From sequence record MT446411.1: a stretch of DNA of 64,000 nucleotides; one strand, given 5' to 3'. The first letter of the stretch is position 1, and each line of letters opens with the position of its first letter. The position numbers and the translations under genes are program-made. Origin of the DNA: Escherichia virus TH40. The notes under the pieces were generated by a model. The model was given only the letters and a program-made list of their open reading frames with translations, was not told the DNA's origin and made no database searches. Shown in pieces: positions 52,606 to 61,313 of this stretch.

Positions 52606-53358
52606 TTAATTAAAAATTTCAACAACCATGGAACGTGGTACAACAGTAAATTCACCAGCATGGACAACGTTCAGGAGTTCAACATCATCTTCAATCCACT
52701 GGTCTGTTACCCAACCACAAATGGAACTGTTAAATGGGCGTTTGATTTGAACTGGTTTACACAGCAAGTCAATAGGGTCACCCAGTTCGCTAACTTCTTC
52801 CAGCAGTACAGATTCACGTGGATAAAGGATAGCTTCAAGATTGTCACCTGATTCATTGACTGCAGTAAATTCAAAGATGCTTTGGTGATTGTGGTACTTA
52901 ACTGTTTTAACGGTAAATGGAGCAAATCCAAAAATACCTTTCAGTACGCGCCAACCGGCATTCAATGCATTAGTATTATCAAAATCACCATATCCAACAA
53001 GTTGATAGGTTTTGTCAACTTTGATAGGAGTTTCTTCAACTTCTTTGAAGAGTTCAATCTCAGCTTCATAAATCATAATTTTTTCTACTTCATTAGTATC
53101 AAGGCGACGTGCATGTAGAATATATGCTTTATCAAACCAGTTACTTTTTACAAAAGTTTCAACAATAAATTCACCTTCACCTAAAGCATCAGTCAGAGTA
53201 TTATACCCAGAAACCATAGCTGCATTTTGAATAATAGGTTCAATCAGTTGATAAGTTTTGTTAATTTCAATAGTCATATTTTGTTTCTCAAGTTTTAATG
53301 GTTTAATTGGGCGAACATACATACTTACAACATCAAAGTCAATAAATTCTGGTTTCAT
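52606..53358 (-). CDS. hypothetical protein, paralogue of 51966..52526
   Basis: 250-aa ORF. Confidence 0.5.
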   Translation of the reverse strand: MKPEFIDFDVVSMYVRPIKPLKLEKQNMTIEINKTYQLIEPIIQNAAMVSGYNTLTDALGEGEFIVETFVKSNWFDKAYILHARRLDTNEVEKIMIYEAEIELFKEVEETPIKVDKTYQLVGYGDFDNTNALNAGWRVLKGIFGFAPFTVKTVKYHNHQSIFEFTAVNESGDNLEAILYPRESVLLEEVSELGDPIDLLCKPVQIKRPFNSSICGWVTDQWIEDDVELLNVVHAGEFTVVPRSMVVEIFN

Positions 53359-53615
53359 TATGCAACCTTATTGAACATCGCCAGTTGGTTAGGTTGTACA
53401 ACCATAATTTCACGACGGCCTTTTGCGTTTGACACGTTCAAGTAGATGCCTTTGTTCATGTCTGTTTCTTTATCATATACCGCAATTTTATTGACAGTAA
53501 AGATTTTACCACGAATATTTGTAAATGCACATTCAAACGCTTCAGTCAGACCTGCTTCAGCAGCTTGAAGAGCAGACATTTCATATTGTTGGCCAATTTC
53601 AAAAGAAGTAATCAT
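53358..53615 (-). CDS. hypothetical protein (85 aa from ATG 53613-53615)
   Basis: GATGAGGATAACAAA SD; the track N-terminus runs through promoter DNA. Confidence 0.4.
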   Translation of the reverse strand: MITSFEIGQQYEMSALQAAEAGLTEAFECAFTNIRGKIFTVNKIAVYDKETDMNKGIYLNVSNAKGRREIMVVQPNQLAMFNKVA

Positions 53616-53646
53616 TTTGTTATCCTCATCAGTAGTTGATGAGATG

Positions 53647-56963: not shown

Positions 56964-57010
56964 GATATTTTTCTCATCTTACGGACGATTGAATAACTCA
57001 GTACGGAATC

Positions 57011-57039
57011 ATTATACACTATTCATCTTTCATGTACAC
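57011..57039 (-). promoter_or_regulatory. sigma70-type early promoter (cassette subtype I)
   Basis: Minus strand TGTACA, 17 bp, TATAAT; subtype I leader. Confidence 0.5.
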
Positions 57040-57098
57040 TACTTTTTTGCCTTTAACGCTTTTATTTTTACCGTGTATAATGGTTCTAAGGTCTTTGG

Positions 57099-57713
57099 TT
57101 AATTCAAAACAGTTAAATGCCAAACAGTATACAGGTTGTTCAATGGGTGTGTCTCAATTAAATCTACGCGAAGCGTAGTCCCAGCGGGAAACATAAACTC
57201 ATCCTCATCATTAACCAGGTGTAAGTTTGACTTCCTGGTTGCTTCTGGATATGCACCATTGAACTCTTCAGGAGGAGCACCGCAAATCATTTTAAAGATT
57301 GCTTCCTGATAGTTATACGCATAAGGTGCATTGTTTATGCAGAAAATATTCCTTGTACCATAGAAGCTATATGATGCGAAATTTCTTGCAACCTGCCAGT
57401 CCCTGGAAAAACTCATCACACGATTGAACTCAATTGTTGCACCAACATATCTTAAATCTTCCAGGTATTCCATGGTTTTCTTTGATATACCACGGAACAA
57501 TGCTGCAGGCGGTGCAGTGTTCAGATTGTTGCGGATAATCCTGGTTAAGTCTTCTTGAATCAGGTCGGGTTTATTTTCCATACACTGCCAGAGTACTGAT
57601 TGCTCATTATCTGTATAAAGGGCATCAATCTCCGCTTGACATTGGTCACGAAAAGACTCACTAGAAGCGGCCGTGTCAATAATTCCATTCAAAACGTCAT
57701 CAGTGTACAGCAT
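57099..57713 (-). CDS. modA: ADP-ribosyltransferase, ModA-like (204 aa from ATG 57711-57713)
   Basis: R-S-E ART triad candidates FRGIS, SFSRD, EDEFMFP; position and size as T4 modA. Confidence 0.7.
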   Translation of the reverse strand: MLYTDDVLNGIIDTAASSESFRDQCQAEIDALYTDNEQSVLWQCMENKPDLIQEDLTRIIRNNLNTAPPAALFRGISKKTMEYLEDLRYVGATIEFNRVMSFSRDWQVARNFASYSFYGTRNIFCINNAPYAYNYQEAIFKMICGAPPEEFNGAYPEATRKSNLHLVNDEDEFMFPAGTTLRVDLIETHPLNNLYTVWHLTVLN

Positions 57714-57743
57714 TTTATTATCCTCATCAGTAGTTGATAGGAA

Positions 57744-57772
57744 CATCTTAACGTGTCTTATTGCTCTTGTAC
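57744..57772 (-). promoter_or_regulatory. sigma70-type early promoter (cassette subtype II)
   Basis: Minus strand GTGTACA, 17 bp, TAAGAT; leader CCTATCAACTACTGATGAGGA. Confidence 0.45.
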
Positions 57773-58318
57773 ACAGTCAAGAACATAATAATCATCAACA
57801 AATCCAGCATCAACTACCACGAATTTCTGGTCAACTGGAACAAACCATTCAAGCTCAGAATCAATCATGTCCATGTATTCTTCACGCCTTAATGTAGCTG
57901 CCTGGGCGGAACCAGAAGCAGTATTGAAGAATTCCAGTGGAACGTCAAGCGCGATTTTGCGCATCGCATCATGGTAACAAAAAGCTTTGGTCCGATTCAA
58001 TCTGACGATAGTCCTAGTCGCATATTCCATTGCAGCAAAATCCCTGGCAATACCATAGTCTTCTGTAAAGGATGTTATCCGTCCAAATTCAAAAGGTTGC
58101 ATTGATTCTTTTGCTTCATCTAACAAATCAATCTCTTGCTGGGTTACCCCGCGCCACAAGACTGTATCGGGTATAGACAACCTTGACTTGATGATTGAGT
58201 TGACATTTGAATGCAAGGTCTTATCAACCTTTGATGTACGACATTCAAATAATGAAGCTATCTCCATTTCACTAAATTTTAACTGGTTGGGTTCGGTATC
58301 AGATTTGATGATGTTCAT
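57758..58318 (-). CDS. modB: ADP-ribosyltransferase, ModB-like
   Basis: 186 aa; LWRG, SFTED, EWFVP triad candidates; paralogue of the adjacent ART. Confidence 0.7.
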   Translation of the reverse strand: MNIIKSDTEPNQLKFSEMEIASLFECRTSKVDKTLHSNVNSIIKSRLSIPDTVLWRGVTQQEIDLLDEAKESMQPFEFGRITSFTEDYGIARDFAAMEYATRTIVRLNRTKAFCYHDAMRKIALDVPLEFFNTASGSAQAATLRREEYMDMIDSELEWFVPVDQKFVVVDAGFVDDYYVLDCVQEQ

Positions 58319-58345
58319 AATGGCCTCTCTGTTGTAAGAAAGGTC

Positions 58346-58375
58346 ATTATGTCATTAGGAGGGGAGTAAGTAAAC
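58346..58375 (-). promoter_or_regulatory. sigma70-type early promoter
   Basis: Minus strand GTTTACT, 17 bp, CATAAT. Confidence 0.5.
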
Positions 58376-58623
58376 TACTTAAACACTCCAAGTGGAACGC
58401 CAAAGACTGCAATGTCTACGGCCATGCCAATCGGAGATTGATATGATGGAGATTGATATGATGAGTAAGAACTTTTCGATTCTGTCGGGCGTTCGACTTT
58501 AATTGTCTTGGATTCAGTCTTAATCCTTTGTAAGCGATTAATTTTTTGTTGCTCGATTTCCTTATGAGCATGTTTACGGTCGATATCCAGCGCCGATGTA
58601 GGAATATTTGTTAACCAGTTCAT
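58375..58623 (-). CDS. hypothetical protein with S/Y-rich segment (82 aa from ATG 58621-58623)
   Basis: MNWLTNIP...SKSSYSSYQSPSYQSP...; ATGA overlap with upstream gene. Confidence 0.4.
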   Translation of the reverse strand: MNWLTNIPTSALDIDRKHAHKEIEQQKINRLQRIKTESKTIKVERPTESKSSYSSYQSPSYQSPIGMAVDIAVFGVPLGVFK

Positions 58624-58799
58624 TGTTTCACCCATGGTGCCCATGGAGGTGGGTCGTCGTAATATGAGGCCAGGTCGCGTAGAACTTCCAAGGGGAGACT
58701 AAAACCGTGCTTCTGTATAATCGCATCAAGTTCGTCAACTAGGTCCACACGGGCTTCCGTAGGAGCTTTAGGCTCTTCAAAAAGTTCAAATAAATCCAT
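58620..58799 (-). CDS. small acidic protein (59 aa)
   Basis: Hand-translated [59 protein letters not shown]; TAATG overlap. Confidence 0.4.
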   Translation of the reverse strand: MDLFELFEEPKAPTEARVDLVDELDAIIQKHGFSLPLEVLRDLASYYDDPPPWAPWVKQ

Positions 58800-59287
58800 T
58801 AGTAACCACCGATAGGGCCGTAACCATACATACGAGCTCGAACTTTAGTATCGTGCAGAGCTTCTTCTGTTAAAGTAAAACGCAGACCGATATCAAAGTG
58901 TTTCCAAATCTGACGTTCGACTTCAGTAAGGTCTTCAGGTGCAGAAATCAGATATGTGCGACCTTTAAGGCGTTCAGTGGCCATTTTATCTCTATCTTTA
59001 TAGAAAATATCCGCGGTTCCTTCTGCATAATGGTCCGGATAACGATAGCCTTTGATATGCAGAGCTTCGGAAACAGTAAACGGGCACCCTTCGGCAACAT
59101 TAACGTTTTTTCTATGAAATACCTTCAGCATAACGTTTTCTGGCATCGTCAAGTTCATTAATTTTGTTTCCAATGCAGTGACCGAATCCATGCCATTGTA
59201 AACCATGATAAGGCATGCGGTAGCATCGTAAGGTCGTGTCTGTCCAGTGGAATCACGGACATAGAATTCTAATTCATATACTTTCAT
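58799..59287 (-). CDS. hypothetical protein
   Basis: 162-aa ORF. Confidence 0.5.
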
Positions 59288-59433
59288 AATGATTTCCTCT
59301 TACCAACTAATGGACCATCAGGAACTTTATTTTCCTTGATGTACTTTTCGTTTTCTTCCATCATTTTACTGCCAATTTTCAAAAGCAAATCCAGTGCTTC
59401 TTTTGCTCGGCGTTCAGCATCTTCTTGTGTCAT
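59284..59433 (-). CDS. small protein (49 aa)
   Basis: Hand-translated [49 protein letters not shown]; ATGA overlaps on both sides. Confidence 0.35.
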
Positions 59434-59624
59434 GATTTATCTCCGTAGATATCACGCATCAGTTTAAGCGCTGCTCGTTCAGTCTTCTTTTCCTGCATGG
59501 CTTTAAGCCCGTTAACGGCCCATTCTTCAGCTTCACGTTGCATTTCTTCCTCGGCCCTGGCTACCCAGGAATCATCAATCCCTGGAGTAACCAACCAATC
59601 TTTAAGCCAACTTGTAATTCTCAT
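59430..59624 (-). CDS. hypothetical protein (SWLK family)
   Basis: 64 aa; [12 protein letters not shown]-terminus. Confidence 0.4.
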
Positions 59625-59966
59625 TTAATCACACGAGCTGGAAGACGAATCACAGCTTCCCGAATCATAGGAGGAATAAGACGAATCACCGGTCCACGAA
59701 CTAACTGCGGCAGCGGTGACCACAATCGAAGTAGTATCGATACTGCTTTGCGCTTGGGCTCTTTGTTCTTGCAGTCGAGTTAAACGTTTTTGTAAGTCTT
59801 CTTCTGACATTGTAGAATATAGGTCTTTTGATTTCGATTTGACCACTTCTTCCATCATACCATCACCCATGTAAGCATATTCTCTTAGCTTAACATCTGG
59901 CGGGCTAACTGGAACCACGCCCTCGTTTGGTTTAGTCTTGAATAAATTCTTGAGCCAACTAATCAT
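59625..59966 (-). CDS. hypothetical protein with Ser-rich tail (SWLK family)
   Basis: 113 aa; MISWLKNLF N-terminus; C-terminus DSSYSSYDSGSCDSSSSSCD. Confidence 0.45.
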   Translation of the reverse strand: MISWLKNLFKTKPNEGVVPVSPPDVKLREYAYMGDGMMEEVVKSKSKDLYSTMSEEDLQKRLTRLQEQRAQAQSSIDTTSIVVTAAAVSSWTGDSSYSSYDSGSCDSSSSSCD

Positions 59967-60160
59967 AGGAAACCTCGTTTAAATTCAACTTGACCATCAT
60001 CATAACGGATTTCAATATTGAATTCTAAAGAGTCATCGTCATGCATCATGAATGAATGTACGATAACTTCATCAAACACACCCAGACCATACTTAAAATG
60101 GACATCATGCGCAATAATTTCATCTAAAGCTTTGTTTGGTTTAATCCAACGGTTTAACAT
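59963..60160 (-). CDS. hypothetical protein
   Basis: 65-aa ORF, ATGA overlap. Confidence 0.4.
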   Translation of the reverse strand: MLNRWIKPNKALDEIIAHDVHFKYGLGVFDEVIVHSFMMHDDDSLEFNIEIRYDDGQVEFKRGFL

Positions 60161-60200
60161 AGTATTCTCCTCTGTAATTGAAATAATTATACCGCTTCTA

Positions 60201-60231
60201 TTAAAAGCAAAAAGGGACTCCGAAGAGTCCC
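60201..60231 (-). terminator. rho-independent terminator after soc
   Basis: Minus strand GGGACTCTTCGGAGTCCC followed by TTTTTGCTTTT; hairpin identical to the one at 4314..4331. Confidence 0.6.
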
Positions 60232-60236
60232 TATAA

Positions 60237-60470
60237 TTAAACTACTGGGGTAGGCGTAAACATCGCCGCGTTCTTAGTTCGCCAATCAGCTGCACTAGAC
60301 GCTACGGTGACATAAGCGGCCTTTTCGGAAGGAAAAGTCTGATAGTGTGCATTCGCAATACGATGCTCATTTGAATAGATTTCAAACGGAACAGATACTT
60401 CAACACCTTTAACTTCTTTACCTTCACCAGCTGGATGCGTAAAGGTTTTGATATTAACGAAACCACCCAT
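60237..60470 (-). CDS. soc: small outer capsid protein
   Basis: 77 aa; VNIKTF and AHYQTFPSEKAAY match T4 Soc as recalled. Confidence 0.8.
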   Translation of the reverse strand: MGGFVNIKTFTHPAGEGKEVKGVEVSVPFEIYSNEHRIANAHYQTFPSEKAAYVTVASSAADWRTKNAAMFTPTPVV

Positions 60471-60511
60471 AATTAACTCCTTTGTTGTTTAATTACGGGT
60501 GTATTTATAAC

Positions 60512-61030
60512 TTAATAACCCCGGTCCTGACGAGCGAAGTTTTCAGCATTTTTCAGGTAATACAGTTTAAAGATTTCTTCTGCTGACAGACCAAGACCAT
60601 GGAACATGTTCAGAACAAAGTGCAGGATGTCAATCATCTCAAATTTAATTTCGAGCTGGTCTTCAGGAGACAACTCATCAATACGACGATTACGGAATTC
60701 AGCATGTTGGGCTTTCCACGGTTTCCAACAACTTGAGGCTGCTTTCTCGCCATTAGACATACCCCCGAGAGAAGTCAGAAGTTCACGGAATTCATCATCG
60801 ACATAATCTTTCTGGTTGCGAAGCCATGCAACAACATCACCTGCAGTAGCCAATTCATCTGGATGTGAGTTATATTCAGGTTTTTCGGTAGCCAGACGAA
60901 CTTGCAATGATTTCTGCATATCAAGCATAATCTGCAGCGGGTCAATACCTTTTGTAATTGCATTGTCATAAGCCAGAGCAGCTTTATCAACACCGGCAAT
61001 CAGTTGTGAACATTCATTAAAATGAGCCAT
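60512..61030 (-). CDS. 56: dCTP pyrophosphatase (MazG-like), 172 aa from ATG 61028-61030
   Basis: MAHFNEC...DPLQIMLDMQ...FRELLTSLGGMSNGEK...EDQLEIKFE...FHFVLNMF...EEIFKLYYLKN...FARQDRGY matches T4 gp56 as recalled. Confidence 0.9.
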   Translation of the reverse strand: MAHFNECSQLIAGVDKAALAYDNAITKGIDPLQIMLDMQKSLQVRLATEKPEYNSHPDELATAGDVVAWLRNQKDYVDDEFRELLTSLGGMSNGEKAASSCWKPWKAQHAEFRNRRIDELSPEDQLEIKFEMIDILHFVLNMFHGLGLSAEEIFKLYYLKNAENFARQDRGY

Positions 61031-61091
61031 TATATTTTTCCTTATCAATTCATGTTGTTTTGTATGTTAATTATATCATATTGGTTTGAAG

Positions 61092-61099
61092 CATAAATA
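61092..61099 (+). promoter_or_regulatory. late-promoter-like element (CATAAATA)
   Basis: 7 of 8 match to TATAAATA, 17 bp upstream of ATG 61116. Confidence 0.3.
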
Positions 61100-61115
61100 C
61101 AAGAAAGGAGGATAT

Positions 61116-61313
61116 ATGCTAAAACTATCTAGTCTAATTCAAGCCATCAAAGACAGTCGTAAGCGAACAATTCTGGTCCTTTCGATACTCTGTTTAGTTC
61201 TACTCTGGAACTTCGTTGTTGCCCCTGTTGCATTGACACATGGTGTTATATTACCAGTCATTGCACTCGAATCAGTTGTAGATATTTTACTGGCATTAAT
61301 CGGCCTTATATAG
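61116..61313 (+). CDS. small membrane protein (65 aa) on the opposite strand
   Basis: AAGGAGGA SD; MLKLSSLIQAIKDSRKRTILVLSILCLVLLWNFVVAPVALTHGVILPVIALESVVDILLALIGLI; two predicted TM helices. Confidence 0.45.
   Translation: MLKLSSLIQAIKDSRKRTILVLSILCLVLLWNFVVAPVALTHGVILPVIALESVVDILLALIGLI

Follow-up and report, generated by a model that had tools for sequence, protein, structure and literature searches.

The locus between modB and soc in Escherichia virus TH40 raises the question of whether several short, neighboring early genes are copies of one another, diversifying in conflict with the host, or distinct genes that have something smaller in common. The window analyzed, 64,000 nt of record MT446411.1, belongs to a Gaprivervirus, a VR7-like T4-type phage; the genes of the locus are all on the minus strand, in a conserved leftward early unit with the order modA-modB-(ORF023c)-modA.2-modA.3-modA.4-srh-mrh.1-mrh.2-soc. 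A preliminary description of the window singled out three ORFs as paralogues sharing an N-terminal motif and a Q/R-rich helical segment, two of them with Ser/Tyr-rich low-complexity tails. These ORFs are present at 58375..58623, 59430..59624, and 59625..59966, all on the minus strand, and do sit, as described, between the ADP-ribosyltransferase pair (ModA/ModB) and Soc.

Each of the three belongs to a different family. The ORF at 59625..59966 (minus strand) encodes a 113 aa Mrh.1 orthologue with the Pfam domain DUF7206 (PF23836, E = 8.5e-31; 107.2 bits against a cut-off of 25.6, protein residues 1-113 on model positions 1-107 of 107), an identity backed by the VR7, JS98, and T4 annotations. 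That at 59430..59624 (minus strand) encodes a 64 aa Srh orthologue (phrog_2441, E = 1.2e-31, residues 1-64), ~52% identical to T4-type Srh by tblastn and annotated in T4 as a “postulated decoy of host sigma32”; its gene is directly upstream of modA.4 within the modB-soc early cluster. The third, gene “A” at 58375..58623 (minus strand), encodes an 82 aa member of the VR7 ORF023c family (phrog_14077, E = 6e-42; VR7 annotation). Its PHROG profile match is end to end (E = 6.2e-42, protein 1-82, model 1-77 of 77), its start codon at 58623 (giving MNWLT) agrees with the family consensus and overlaps the ModA.2 stop as ATGA, and its position is always between modB and modA.2 (synteny checked in VR7, JS98, and Q7622). 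With Pfam and PHROG scores that clear their thresholds by a wide margin, the family identities are firm; the annotated relatives supporting identity and synteny are VR7, T4, JS98, and three other genera. Phage records number 67 for ORF023c (including Gaprivervirus, Dhakavirus, Kanagawavirus, and others), 413 for Mrh.1, and 585 for Srh, and in a library of 1.84 billion proteins ORF023c forms only four clusters. An NCBIfam search gave no match for any of the three ORFs, and a search of solved structures (PDB profiles) with the three family profiles returned nothing below E = 0.7. The genes are already catalogued: srh, mrh.1, and the ORF023c PHROG (function unknown) are real conserved early genes. 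The account that we consider probable is that the three ORFs are orthologues of these separate small early protein families, with an N-terminal docking peptide in common. The names given to these ORFs in GenBank (“conjugal transfer protein,” “ovule protein,” “molybdenum ABC transporter”) are unfounded and are best not carried over into new annotations.

What had been taken for overlapping micro-ORFs interleaved with the three are conserved genes as well, all on the minus strand: orthologues of ModA.2 (58620..58799, 59 aa; phrog_1647, E = 6e-27; VR7 annotation), ModA.3, a member of the T4 Mrh-like family (58799..59287; Pfam T4_MRH, E = 2.5e-44; phrog_1234), and ModA.4 (59284..59433, 49 aa; phrog_2681, E = 1.6e-33; VR7 annotation). 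An Mrh.2 orthologue follows at 59963..60160 (minus strand, 65 aa; phrog_1873, E = 7e-33). A consensus scan marks a terminator-like hairpin at 60213..60232 (minus strand), 3′ of soc and 5′ of mrh.2, a match that does not by itself imply function. On the plus strand, the ORFs at 59538-59783 (which has no PHROG match), 59716-59874, and 58898-59161 have stop codons in VR7 and/or JS98, and none looks coding; nor does the ORF at 59336-59467, open in JS98 and stopped in VR7.

Past their N-termini, the three proteins have no significant similarity, and the proposal of a paralogue family fails on this point. BLASTP among them gave E ~0.9 or no alignment; hhalign probabilities stayed at 0.2-8% when the profiles were narrow and at 0.3-17% when they were broad, over 3-16 columns, the N-terminal 10-16 at best. 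The ORF023c alignment, searched against the 1.84 billion proteins, retrieved ORF023c-type clusters and one spurious repeat protein, with no bridge to Srh or Mrh.1. At the sequence level, then, the three ORFs show no detectable homology over their full length. The Q/R-rich helical segment supposedly common to them is where ORF023c and Mrh.1 are conserved least, and other genera have unrelated sequence in its place. The hexapeptide SSYSSY does occur in both ORF023c and Mrh.1, and is lineage-specific in both families, being absent from Dhakavirus, Klebsiella-phage, Kanagawavirus, Winklervirus, and T4 members. Recent DNA exchange was considered as its source and rejected: the two coding sequences disagree at 6 of 18 positions, and the match is put down to chance within Ser/Tyr-rich tracts. 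AlphaFold2 predicts a long helix plus a hydrophobic helix for ORF023c (pLDDT 66.3), and a small beta-sheet, a helix, and a disordered tail for Mrh.1 (pLDDT 57.6), at a confidence too low in both cases to make a fold search worthwhile.

Both Ser/Tyr-rich tracts are present as first described, but they are not equivalent, and only that of Mrh.1 is a conserved tail. In ORF023c the tract is internal, a Ser/Tyr/Pro-rich linker (residues 49-64; 58432..58479, minus strand) containing a 15-nt tandem repeat at 58433-58463 (TRF period 15, 2.1 copies, 100% match) that encodes SYQSP twice. Across homologues there are one to three SYQSP copies, by 15-nt slippage, and the linker is predicted to be disordered and is weakly conserved in distant members. 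On one side of it is the invariant N-terminal module MNWLTNIPTSALDID (58579..58623, minus strand), whose W-L-T ... P ... L-D residues are invariant alignment columns and which, compared with JS98, has dN = 0 at dS = 1.4. On the other is a conserved hydrophobic C-terminal helix, IGMAVDIAVFGVPLGVFK (58378..58431, minus strand; AlphaFold2 helix at 64-74), with A68, I71, F74, G75, and P77 invariant and a mean Kyte-Doolittle hydropathy of ~1.9 over 18 residues. The Ser/Tyr tract of ORF023c is thus merely a slippage-prone, variable linker between two conserved ends.

In Mrh.1, the landmarks of the family are all present, as columns invariant in six genera: an N-terminal W-Phi-K-x-Phi-F helix, EYxYxGDG, and a C-terminal SCD...SCD. 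The N-terminal amphipathic helix MISWLKNLFKTKP (59928..59966, minus strand) is supported by residue conservation and a HeliQuest-type discriminant; K6, F9, and P13 are invariant in the six genera and W4 nearly so. The C-terminal tail SSWTGDSSYSSYDSGSCDSSSSSCD (59628..59702, minus strand), predicted to be disordered in the AlphaFold2 model, is an internal 36-nt duplication (tandem repeat, 59627-59698) that yields two 12-residue units, and ends in SCD ... SCD-COOH; the same ending, SCDS-x(2-5)-SCD-COOH, is found in six genera, with S104, C105, S111, C112, and D113 invariant. Against VR7 and JS98 the tail has no amino acid changes at all (dN = 0) despite dS of 0.38 and 0.89, and the codon comparison shows synonymous changes that include TCN/AGY serine switches. 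By these comparisons the Ser/Tyr/Cys tail (...YDSGSCDS-x-SCD-COOH) is a strongly constrained C-terminal motif, and the most constrained part of the protein. Conservation on account of downstream translation signals was rejected as an explanation: the downstream gene varies between genera, while the motif persists with synonymous change. No discussion of a conserved Cys-Asp C-terminal motif in Mrh.1 was found in the searchable literature, and a search for “mrh.1” with “bacteriophage” found no paper. A likeness of Mrh.1 NLFKTKP to RpoH NLRKTKQ was also tried as a case of RpoH-box mimicry and rejected (pairwise E 0.049, ungapped, composition-driven, and not kept in T4 Mrh.1).

The name of Srh points to the same host factor. 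T4 Srh does have a weak resemblance to residues 244-279 of sigma32 (Smith-Waterman score 58 against E. coli RpoH, reached by 1 of 2000 shuffles). For TH40 Srh the corresponding score is 35, reached by 408 of 2000 shuffles; the resemblance is undetectable, the decoy idea was dropped for this protein, and the name is kept here as historical only. The Srh family HMM scored ~2 bits against RpoH, and the PDB profile search returned no sigma factor. In the papers that could be searched, no biochemical demonstration of a decoy function for T4 Srh was found. The genetics stand apart from this: PMC6070864, citing Mosig 1998, reports for T4 that late transcription is affected by mrh and srh both at 42 C and in an rpoH mutant background. 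In the PMC9697503 supplement, T4 srh RNA is classed as early and its protein detected, and mrh.1 RNA is likewise classed as early, with Mrh.1 protein undetected in that proteome. The T4 Mrh.1 sequence has three Lys/Arg only, for tryptic peptides of ~50 residues.

The part of the preliminary description that is borne out is the N-terminal motif, which is real and non-random by a gene-wide scan, pair scores, and permutations, all of them post hoc. Of ~288 genes (greedy gene calls over a whole-genome equivalent), four have W-[LIV]-[KT] within residues 1-10, and all four are within 58375-60160, in a single seven-gene run of ~1.8 kb. The fourth carrier, overlooked before, is Mrh.2 (MLNRWIKPN; MLNRWIKPNKALDEI), with W-[LIV]-K. 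In Srh the module occupies 59571..59624 (minus strand), from family alignments, and hhalign registers it with the Mrh.1 N-terminus; in each informative pair, the best hhalign match is between the two N-termini, in register. Judged on sequence, a module is common to the four proteins: W-[LIV]-[KT], a proline within a few residues, and an aliphatic-Asp pair that three of them have. Within every family, few stretches of the protein are better conserved. Such a short motif could in principle arise by coincidence or as a trivial effect of composition, in genes that are otherwise merely small and early. Single pairs reach only the top 0.2-10% of N-terminal pair scores: among the 6216 pairs formed by the first 16 residues of genes in the window, Srh-Mrh.1 ranks 10th and ORF023c-Mrh.1 31st. 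The second-best neighborhood in the window scores nearly as high, although this is driven by one duplicated ribosome-binding-site region. On the other hand, the observed mean score was reached by 103 of 200000 random three-gene sets and by only 3 of 200000 random four-gene sets, P-values that are optimistic in that the motif was defined after being seen. The extended pattern W[LIV][KT].{0,6}P.{1,4}[LIV]D occurs just three times in ~54,000 residues, at the N-termini of ORF023c, Srh, and Mrh.2, and within each family the residues of the motif hardly vary, if at all, in spite of saturated synonymous change. Together with the confinement of all four carriers to 1.8 kb, this makes coincidence distinctly improbable.

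The N-terminal likeness could instead be the last trace of true but ancient paralogy, four small genes having arisen by tandem duplication and diverged everywhere except in their first 10-16 residues. The genes are adjacent, co-oriented, and similarly small; the motif is confined to one place in the genome; and, wherever a comparison is informative, the likeness runs in register from the first residue on, hhalign being able to pair ORF023c MNWLTN--IPTSALD with Mrh.1 MISWLKN[10 aa]VPVSPPD. Such descent is nonetheless unlikely: hhalign probability does not exceed 17% and nothing aligns beyond column 16, the Mrh.1 and ORF023c models differ in secondary structure, the families have different phyletic distributions, and they are three separate PHROGs even though PHROGs come from remote-homology clustering. 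The original reading, of diversifying paralogues whose low-complexity tails mark them as arms-race host-takeover or anti-defence factors, asks for more still. It has in its favor that the region is early, dispensable, plastic, and adjoins ADP-ribosyltransferases, that SYQSP copy number varies in ORF023c, and that ORF023c and Mrh.1 change rapidly in their middle segments. However, by Nei-Gojobori estimates and codon comparison with the relatives VR7 and JS98, whole-gene dN/dS is 0.06-0.30 overall (ORF023c 0.17-0.25, Srh 0.06-0.30), purifying selection on all three; the highest regional value, in the middle of ORF023c, is 0.78, and no segment exceeds 1. The most conserved parts are the Mrh.1 tail and both ends of ORF023c. 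Each family is single-copy and syntenic at all loci inspected, in six genera, and paralogy itself is unsupported. An arms race of this kind is therefore very improbable. The early host-takeover element of that reading survives, through the early neighborhood and the T4 srh/mrh genetics and early RNAs of PMC6070864 and PMC9697503, but nothing points specifically to anti-defence.

If the N-terminal peptide is neither chance nor a relic of duplication, it may serve as a common docking element that brings small effectors of differing function to a single location or partner inside the infected cell. In a fuller version of this proposal, possible but doubtful as a whole, ORF023c, Srh, Mrh.1, and Mrh.2, co-transcribed in the T4 “rpoH-modulating” cluster, would use a peptide of the form W-Phi-K/T ... 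P ... Phi-D to deliver unrelated effectors to one host site, either the inner-membrane surface or a single protein of sigma32, chaperone, or protease control. N-terminal hydrophobic moments are at the 91st percentile of genes in the window for Mrh.1, ~94.5 for Srh, and 74.5 for ORF023c. In Mrh.1, and less clearly in Srh, a Trp-anchored amphipathic helix like those of FtsA, MinD, and SepF would tether the protein to the inner membrane on its cytoplasmic side, and ORF023c would gain a further hold from its hydrophobic C-terminal helix. As a counterpoint, an N-terminal helix of amphipathic character can just as well lie against the body of a small soluble protein. The Mrh.1 tail YDSGSCDS-x-SCD-COOH, in which two Cys-Asp pairs stay invariant amid disordered, Ser-rich sequence, could be a new peptide that binds a metal or a partner, or is chemically modified. 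Gly/Ser/Cys-rich versions of this tail, present in other genera, are reminiscent of core sequences in modified peptides like microcin B17; no sign of a modifying enzyme was seen. Taken together, the genes of the cluster would act on host transcription and on the heat-shock response, an effect shown genetically for T4 srh and mrh.

What may be new here is an N-terminal peptide common to four neighboring early proteins, two of them from the one T4 gene cluster that genetics has linked to the heat-shock sigma factor of the host. Should it prove a common docking signal, it would offer a handle on T4 early genes that have been without a mechanism since 1998; should it not, these are ordinary conserved small early genes.

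T4 lacks a member of the ORF023c family, and the RefSeq record of JS98 leaves the gene unannotated; the TH40 copy is 100% identical to that of Yersinia phage vB_YenM_P8, and carries two SYQSP units, against one in most members. In T4 itself, mrh lies between srh and mrh.1; TH40 has no mrh. The placement of mrh.1 between mrh.2 and the srh side is common to both, as is the C-terminus PPPWAPW of the ModA.2 orthologues. T4 Mrh.1 shares with TH40 Mrh.1 the N-terminal aromatic amphipathic helix, PGEGVVP, EYVYMGDG, and the C-terminal ...SCD...SCD, but the middle of the protein is unrelated, and its tail (SCGSSCDSSCSSTSCD) has four cysteines where TH40 has two cysteines and two tyrosines at the equivalent repeat positions. 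T4 Srh has the same position beside modA.4 and an identical C-terminus, but its N-terminus begins KKMLEWF where TH40 Srh has SWLKDWL; that T4 Srh carries KKMLEWFNRP and not SWLK is a counterpoint to a docking module. Outside the phages, MinD and Bacillus subtilis SepF are examples of proteins with terminal amphipathic membrane-targeting sequences. A further example is E. coli FtsA, whose verified C-terminus GSWIKRLNSWLRKEF literally has SW[IL]K in common with the Mrh.1 N-terminus MISWLKNLFKTK. By the HeliQuest-type discriminant, Mrh.1 (1.51) is close to FtsA (1.57), Srh is borderline (0.75), and ORF023c is not amphipathic (0.38). The Mrh.1 N-terminus has the same kind of Trp/Leu/Phe face as FtsA-type targeting sequences, with a net charge of +3, an analogy of physical character and not of homology, which extends to Srh at the margin and fails for ORF023c.

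All genes in 57000-61100 are on the minus strand. By VR7 and T4 annotations and Pfam and PHROG scans, their order is soc (60237-60470), mrh.2 (59963-60160), mrh.1 (59625-59966; Pfam DUF7206, E = 8.5e-31), srh (59430-59624; phrog_2441, "decoy of host sigma32", E = 1.2e-31), modA.4 (59284-59433), modA.3 (58799-59287; Pfam T4_MRH), modA.2 (58620-58799), a gene of the VR7 ORF023c family (58375-58623; phrog_14077, E = 6e-42; its product is called A here), modB (57758-58318), and modA (57099-57746 as the longest ORF). The interval is 96-98% identical to the Gaprivervirus-type T4-like phages EAWsc9, vB_YenM_P8 (P8), and ECML-359, and 89.5% identical to VR7. Given these annotations and family matches, the three ORFs singled out in the preliminary description (A, Srh, and Mrh.1) are real genes with the position and tails described; the "interleaved overlapping micro-ORFs" do overlap, in ATGA-type fashion, but are conserved genes. 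Plus-strand ORFs across the stretch do not look coding: they contain stop codons in VR7 and/or JS98, and the one scanned had no family match. A, Srh, and Mrh.1 are members of catalogued families.

The region does include a genuine paralogue pair, since ModA.3 matches T4_MRH (E = 2.5e-44): ModA.3 and T4 Mrh. The mrh gene, between srh and mrh.1 in T4, is absent from TH40 and VR7. ModA.2, including that of T4, has a strictly conserved C-terminal PPPWAPW(V/A)K in all genera examined, unlike its variable N-terminal half. In both modA and a phrog_17795 gene (53358-53615), the start codon and its ribosome-binding site lie in a 28-nt direct repeat (53613-53640 and 57711-57738, 96% identity; ATCAACTACTGATGAGGATAACAAAATG on the minus strand), which implies that the true ModA start is the ATG at 57713 rather than the longest-ORF start at 57746, yielding a 204 aa product (MLYTDD...), as in VR7. 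Between soc and mrh.2 (60161-60236), a terminator-like hairpin (60213-60232) immediately follows soc; past it the minus strand reads GGTATAAT, then a strong ribosome-binding site (GAGGAG) ahead of mrh.2. A MotA-box-like TTTGCTTTT stretch overlaps the T-run there, where a consensus promoter scan called no promoter. Among the few plus-strand genes within the leftward-transcribed block is a small one at 61086-61313 (phrog_2024, VR7ORF033w), flanked by gene 56 and primase gene 61; its product looks like a hydrophobic membrane protein, and its EAWsc9 counterpart is named "holin family protein". JS98 (NC_010105.1) has an intact 77-aa ORF023c-family gene (L005:3878-4111, MNWLTNIPTS...GVFK) between modA.2 and modB that its RefSeq record does not annotate, and spurious product names ("conjugal transfer protein", "molybdenum ABC transporter", "ovule protein") are attached to 58375-58623, 58620-58799, and 59625-59966 in PQ341120.1, PP693301.1, and MW250787.1. 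The P8 record has many implausible names overall, for example long "thioredoxin" runs.

The three proteins had been described as diversifying paralogues, but full-length paralogy is not supported. By BLASTP, A/Mrh.1 and Srh/Mrh.1 both gave E ~0.9, and A/Srh no alignment. Homologues gathered for each family (28, 40, and 10 clusters) were aligned and the profiles compared with hhalign, giving probabilities of 7.9, 6.4, and 0.2% for the three pairs over only 3-14 columns. Broader alignments, adding T4, Dhakavirus, Klebsiella phage, Kanagawavirus, Winklervirus, and distant A-type proteins, raised these to 17, 12, and 0.3%, with the top match of A/Mrh.1 and of Srh/Mrh.1 being their N-termini, in register from residue 1. 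A profile search of 1.84 billion representative proteins with the A alignment recovered four A-type clusters, and neither Srh nor Mrh.1. AlphaFold2 models, though of low confidence, differ in kind: Mrh.1 is modelled as a small beta-sheet (9-41) and a single helix (55-74) followed by a disordered tail, and A as a long helix (11-43) joined by a disordered tract (44-63) to a C-terminal one (64-74). Phyletic ranges also differ (A in 67 phage records, Mrh.1 in 413, Srh in 585). Nor is diversification supported: whole-gene dN/dS is 0.06-0.30 for all three, indicating purifying selection. Overall the earlier interpretation holds in part: the early host-takeover context fits, but the labels "paralogue" and "diversifying" and an anti-defence signature do not.

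The two unusual tails are of different sorts. In A, two copies of SYQSP within the Ser/Tyr tract are encoded by a perfect tandem repeat of 15 nt (58433-58463); homologues have 1-3 copies, and distant members have other Ser-rich sequence in its place. The ends are conserved, with dN = 0 and dS = 1.4 vs JS98 at the N-terminus and a hydrophobic C-terminus of the form A-x-[DE]-I-A-x-F-G-x-P-x-G-x-F-[KR]. The Mrh.1 tail, SSWTGDSSYSSYDSGSCDSSSSSCD, is no fast-evolving low-complexity stretch: it is near-invariant in a family whose middle cannot be aligned. Six genera share the C-terminus ...SCDS[SG]-x(2-5)-SCD-COOH, and T4 Mrh.1 ends in SCDSSCSSTSCD. Codon choice here varies freely, with some serines switching between TCN and AGY; for residues 89-113, dN is 0 (Nei-Gojobori), with dS of 0.38 vs VR7 and 0.89 vs JS98, and for the middle (42-88) dN/dS is ~0.3-0.5. 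Because the gene downstream of mrh.1 varies by genus, this conservation is not attributable to an overlapping translation signal. The tail is internally duplicated (36 nt; 59627-59698, 72% identity), yielding two 12-residue units, SWTGDSSYSSYD and SGSCDSSSSSCD, with Tyr and Cys at equivalent positions. Cys-Asp is invariant at two sites in this disordered, Ser-rich stretch, which suggests metal binding, partner binding, or modification. The SSYSSY hexapeptide common to A and Mrh.1 occurs in each family only within the TH40 lineage; chance is the best reading.

Late transcription at 42 C and in rpoH mutants is reportedly influenced by the mrh and srh genes of T4 (PMC6070864, citing Mosig 1998). 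A T4 multi-omics supplement (PMC9697503) classes both srh and mrh.1 RNA as early, and records protein as detected for srh and not detected for mrh.1; T4 Mrh.1 has just three Lys/Arg, which may account for the missing peptides. A literature search found no paper with mrh.1 and "bacteriophage" together. Judged by alignment scores, the "sigma32 decoy" name is based on weak similarity: T4 Srh vs E. coli RpoH 244-279 scores 58, reached by 1 of 2000 shuffles, and TH40 Srh scores 35, reached by 408 of 2000. Searches with the three family profiles found no solved-structure relatives, and an NCBIfam scan of the three ORFs gave no matches.

What the proteins do share is a short N-terminal module, as had been noticed, and it extends to Mrh.2 (MLNRWIKPN). 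M-x(0,5)-W-[LI]-[KT] is found, among the window's Met-initiated ORFs of at least 40 aa, in A, Srh, Mrh.1, Mrh.2, and one non-coding-looking ORF. Counting also the rest of the P8 genome, of which the window corresponds to ~97-161 kb, W-[LIV]-[KT] falls within the first 10 residues of only 4 of ~288 greedy gene calls, all four inside 58375-60160. Scored over the first 16 residues, Srh-Mrh.1, A-Mrh.1, and A-Mrh.2 rank 10th, 31st, and 57th of 6216 window gene pairs; the observed mean was equaled or exceeded by 103 of 200000 random three-gene sets and 3 of 200000 four-gene sets. The longer pattern W[LIV][KT].{0,6}P.{1,4}[LIV]D has three matches across ~54,000 residues, at the N-termini of A, Srh, and Mrh.2. 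Coincidence is unlikely given these results together, although the statistics are post hoc. The module is also among the most conserved parts of each family: W3, L4, I7, P8, and S10 are invariant in A, and K6, F9, and P13 in Mrh.1, with W4 nearly so. In the broad Srh alignment only M1, P14, and W20 are invariant; SWLK(D/N)WL is found in five of six homologues, T4 excluded. T4 Srh has KKMLEWFNRP instead, so literal "SWLK" is not universal. Two more small proteins have an N-terminus of this kind: those of Klebsiella phage Biddle_MM4 (L006:2331-2504, MNWVKRFLDW...) and Enterobacter phage Q7622 (L007:2083-2271, MKLNPLPWIKNWLSEP...). They lie at different cluster positions and are probably divergent Srh relatives.

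The N-terminal peptide could be a common docking element, with the Mrh.1 Cys-Asp tail perhaps serving in metal binding, partner binding, or modification. A rival use of such N-termini would be as protease recognition signals (the ClpX N-motif). The module, including that of Mrh.2, and the invariant tail are worth a small experiment. If docking is the function, membrane attachment is one form it might take: the Mrh.1 N-terminus, with a Trp/Leu/Phe face and a net charge of +3, looks like an amphipathic helix of the terminal membrane-targeting type. By a HeliQuest-type discriminant Srh is borderline (0.75) and A does not qualify (0.38); the hydrophobic C-terminal helix of A could act as an anchor instead. 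Mrh.1 scores 1.51 and the membrane-targeting sequence of E. coli FtsA (GSWIKRLNSWLRKEF, confirmed against the genome) scores 1.57; the Biddle_MM4 MNWVKRFLDW is a close match to SWIKRLNSW of FtsA.
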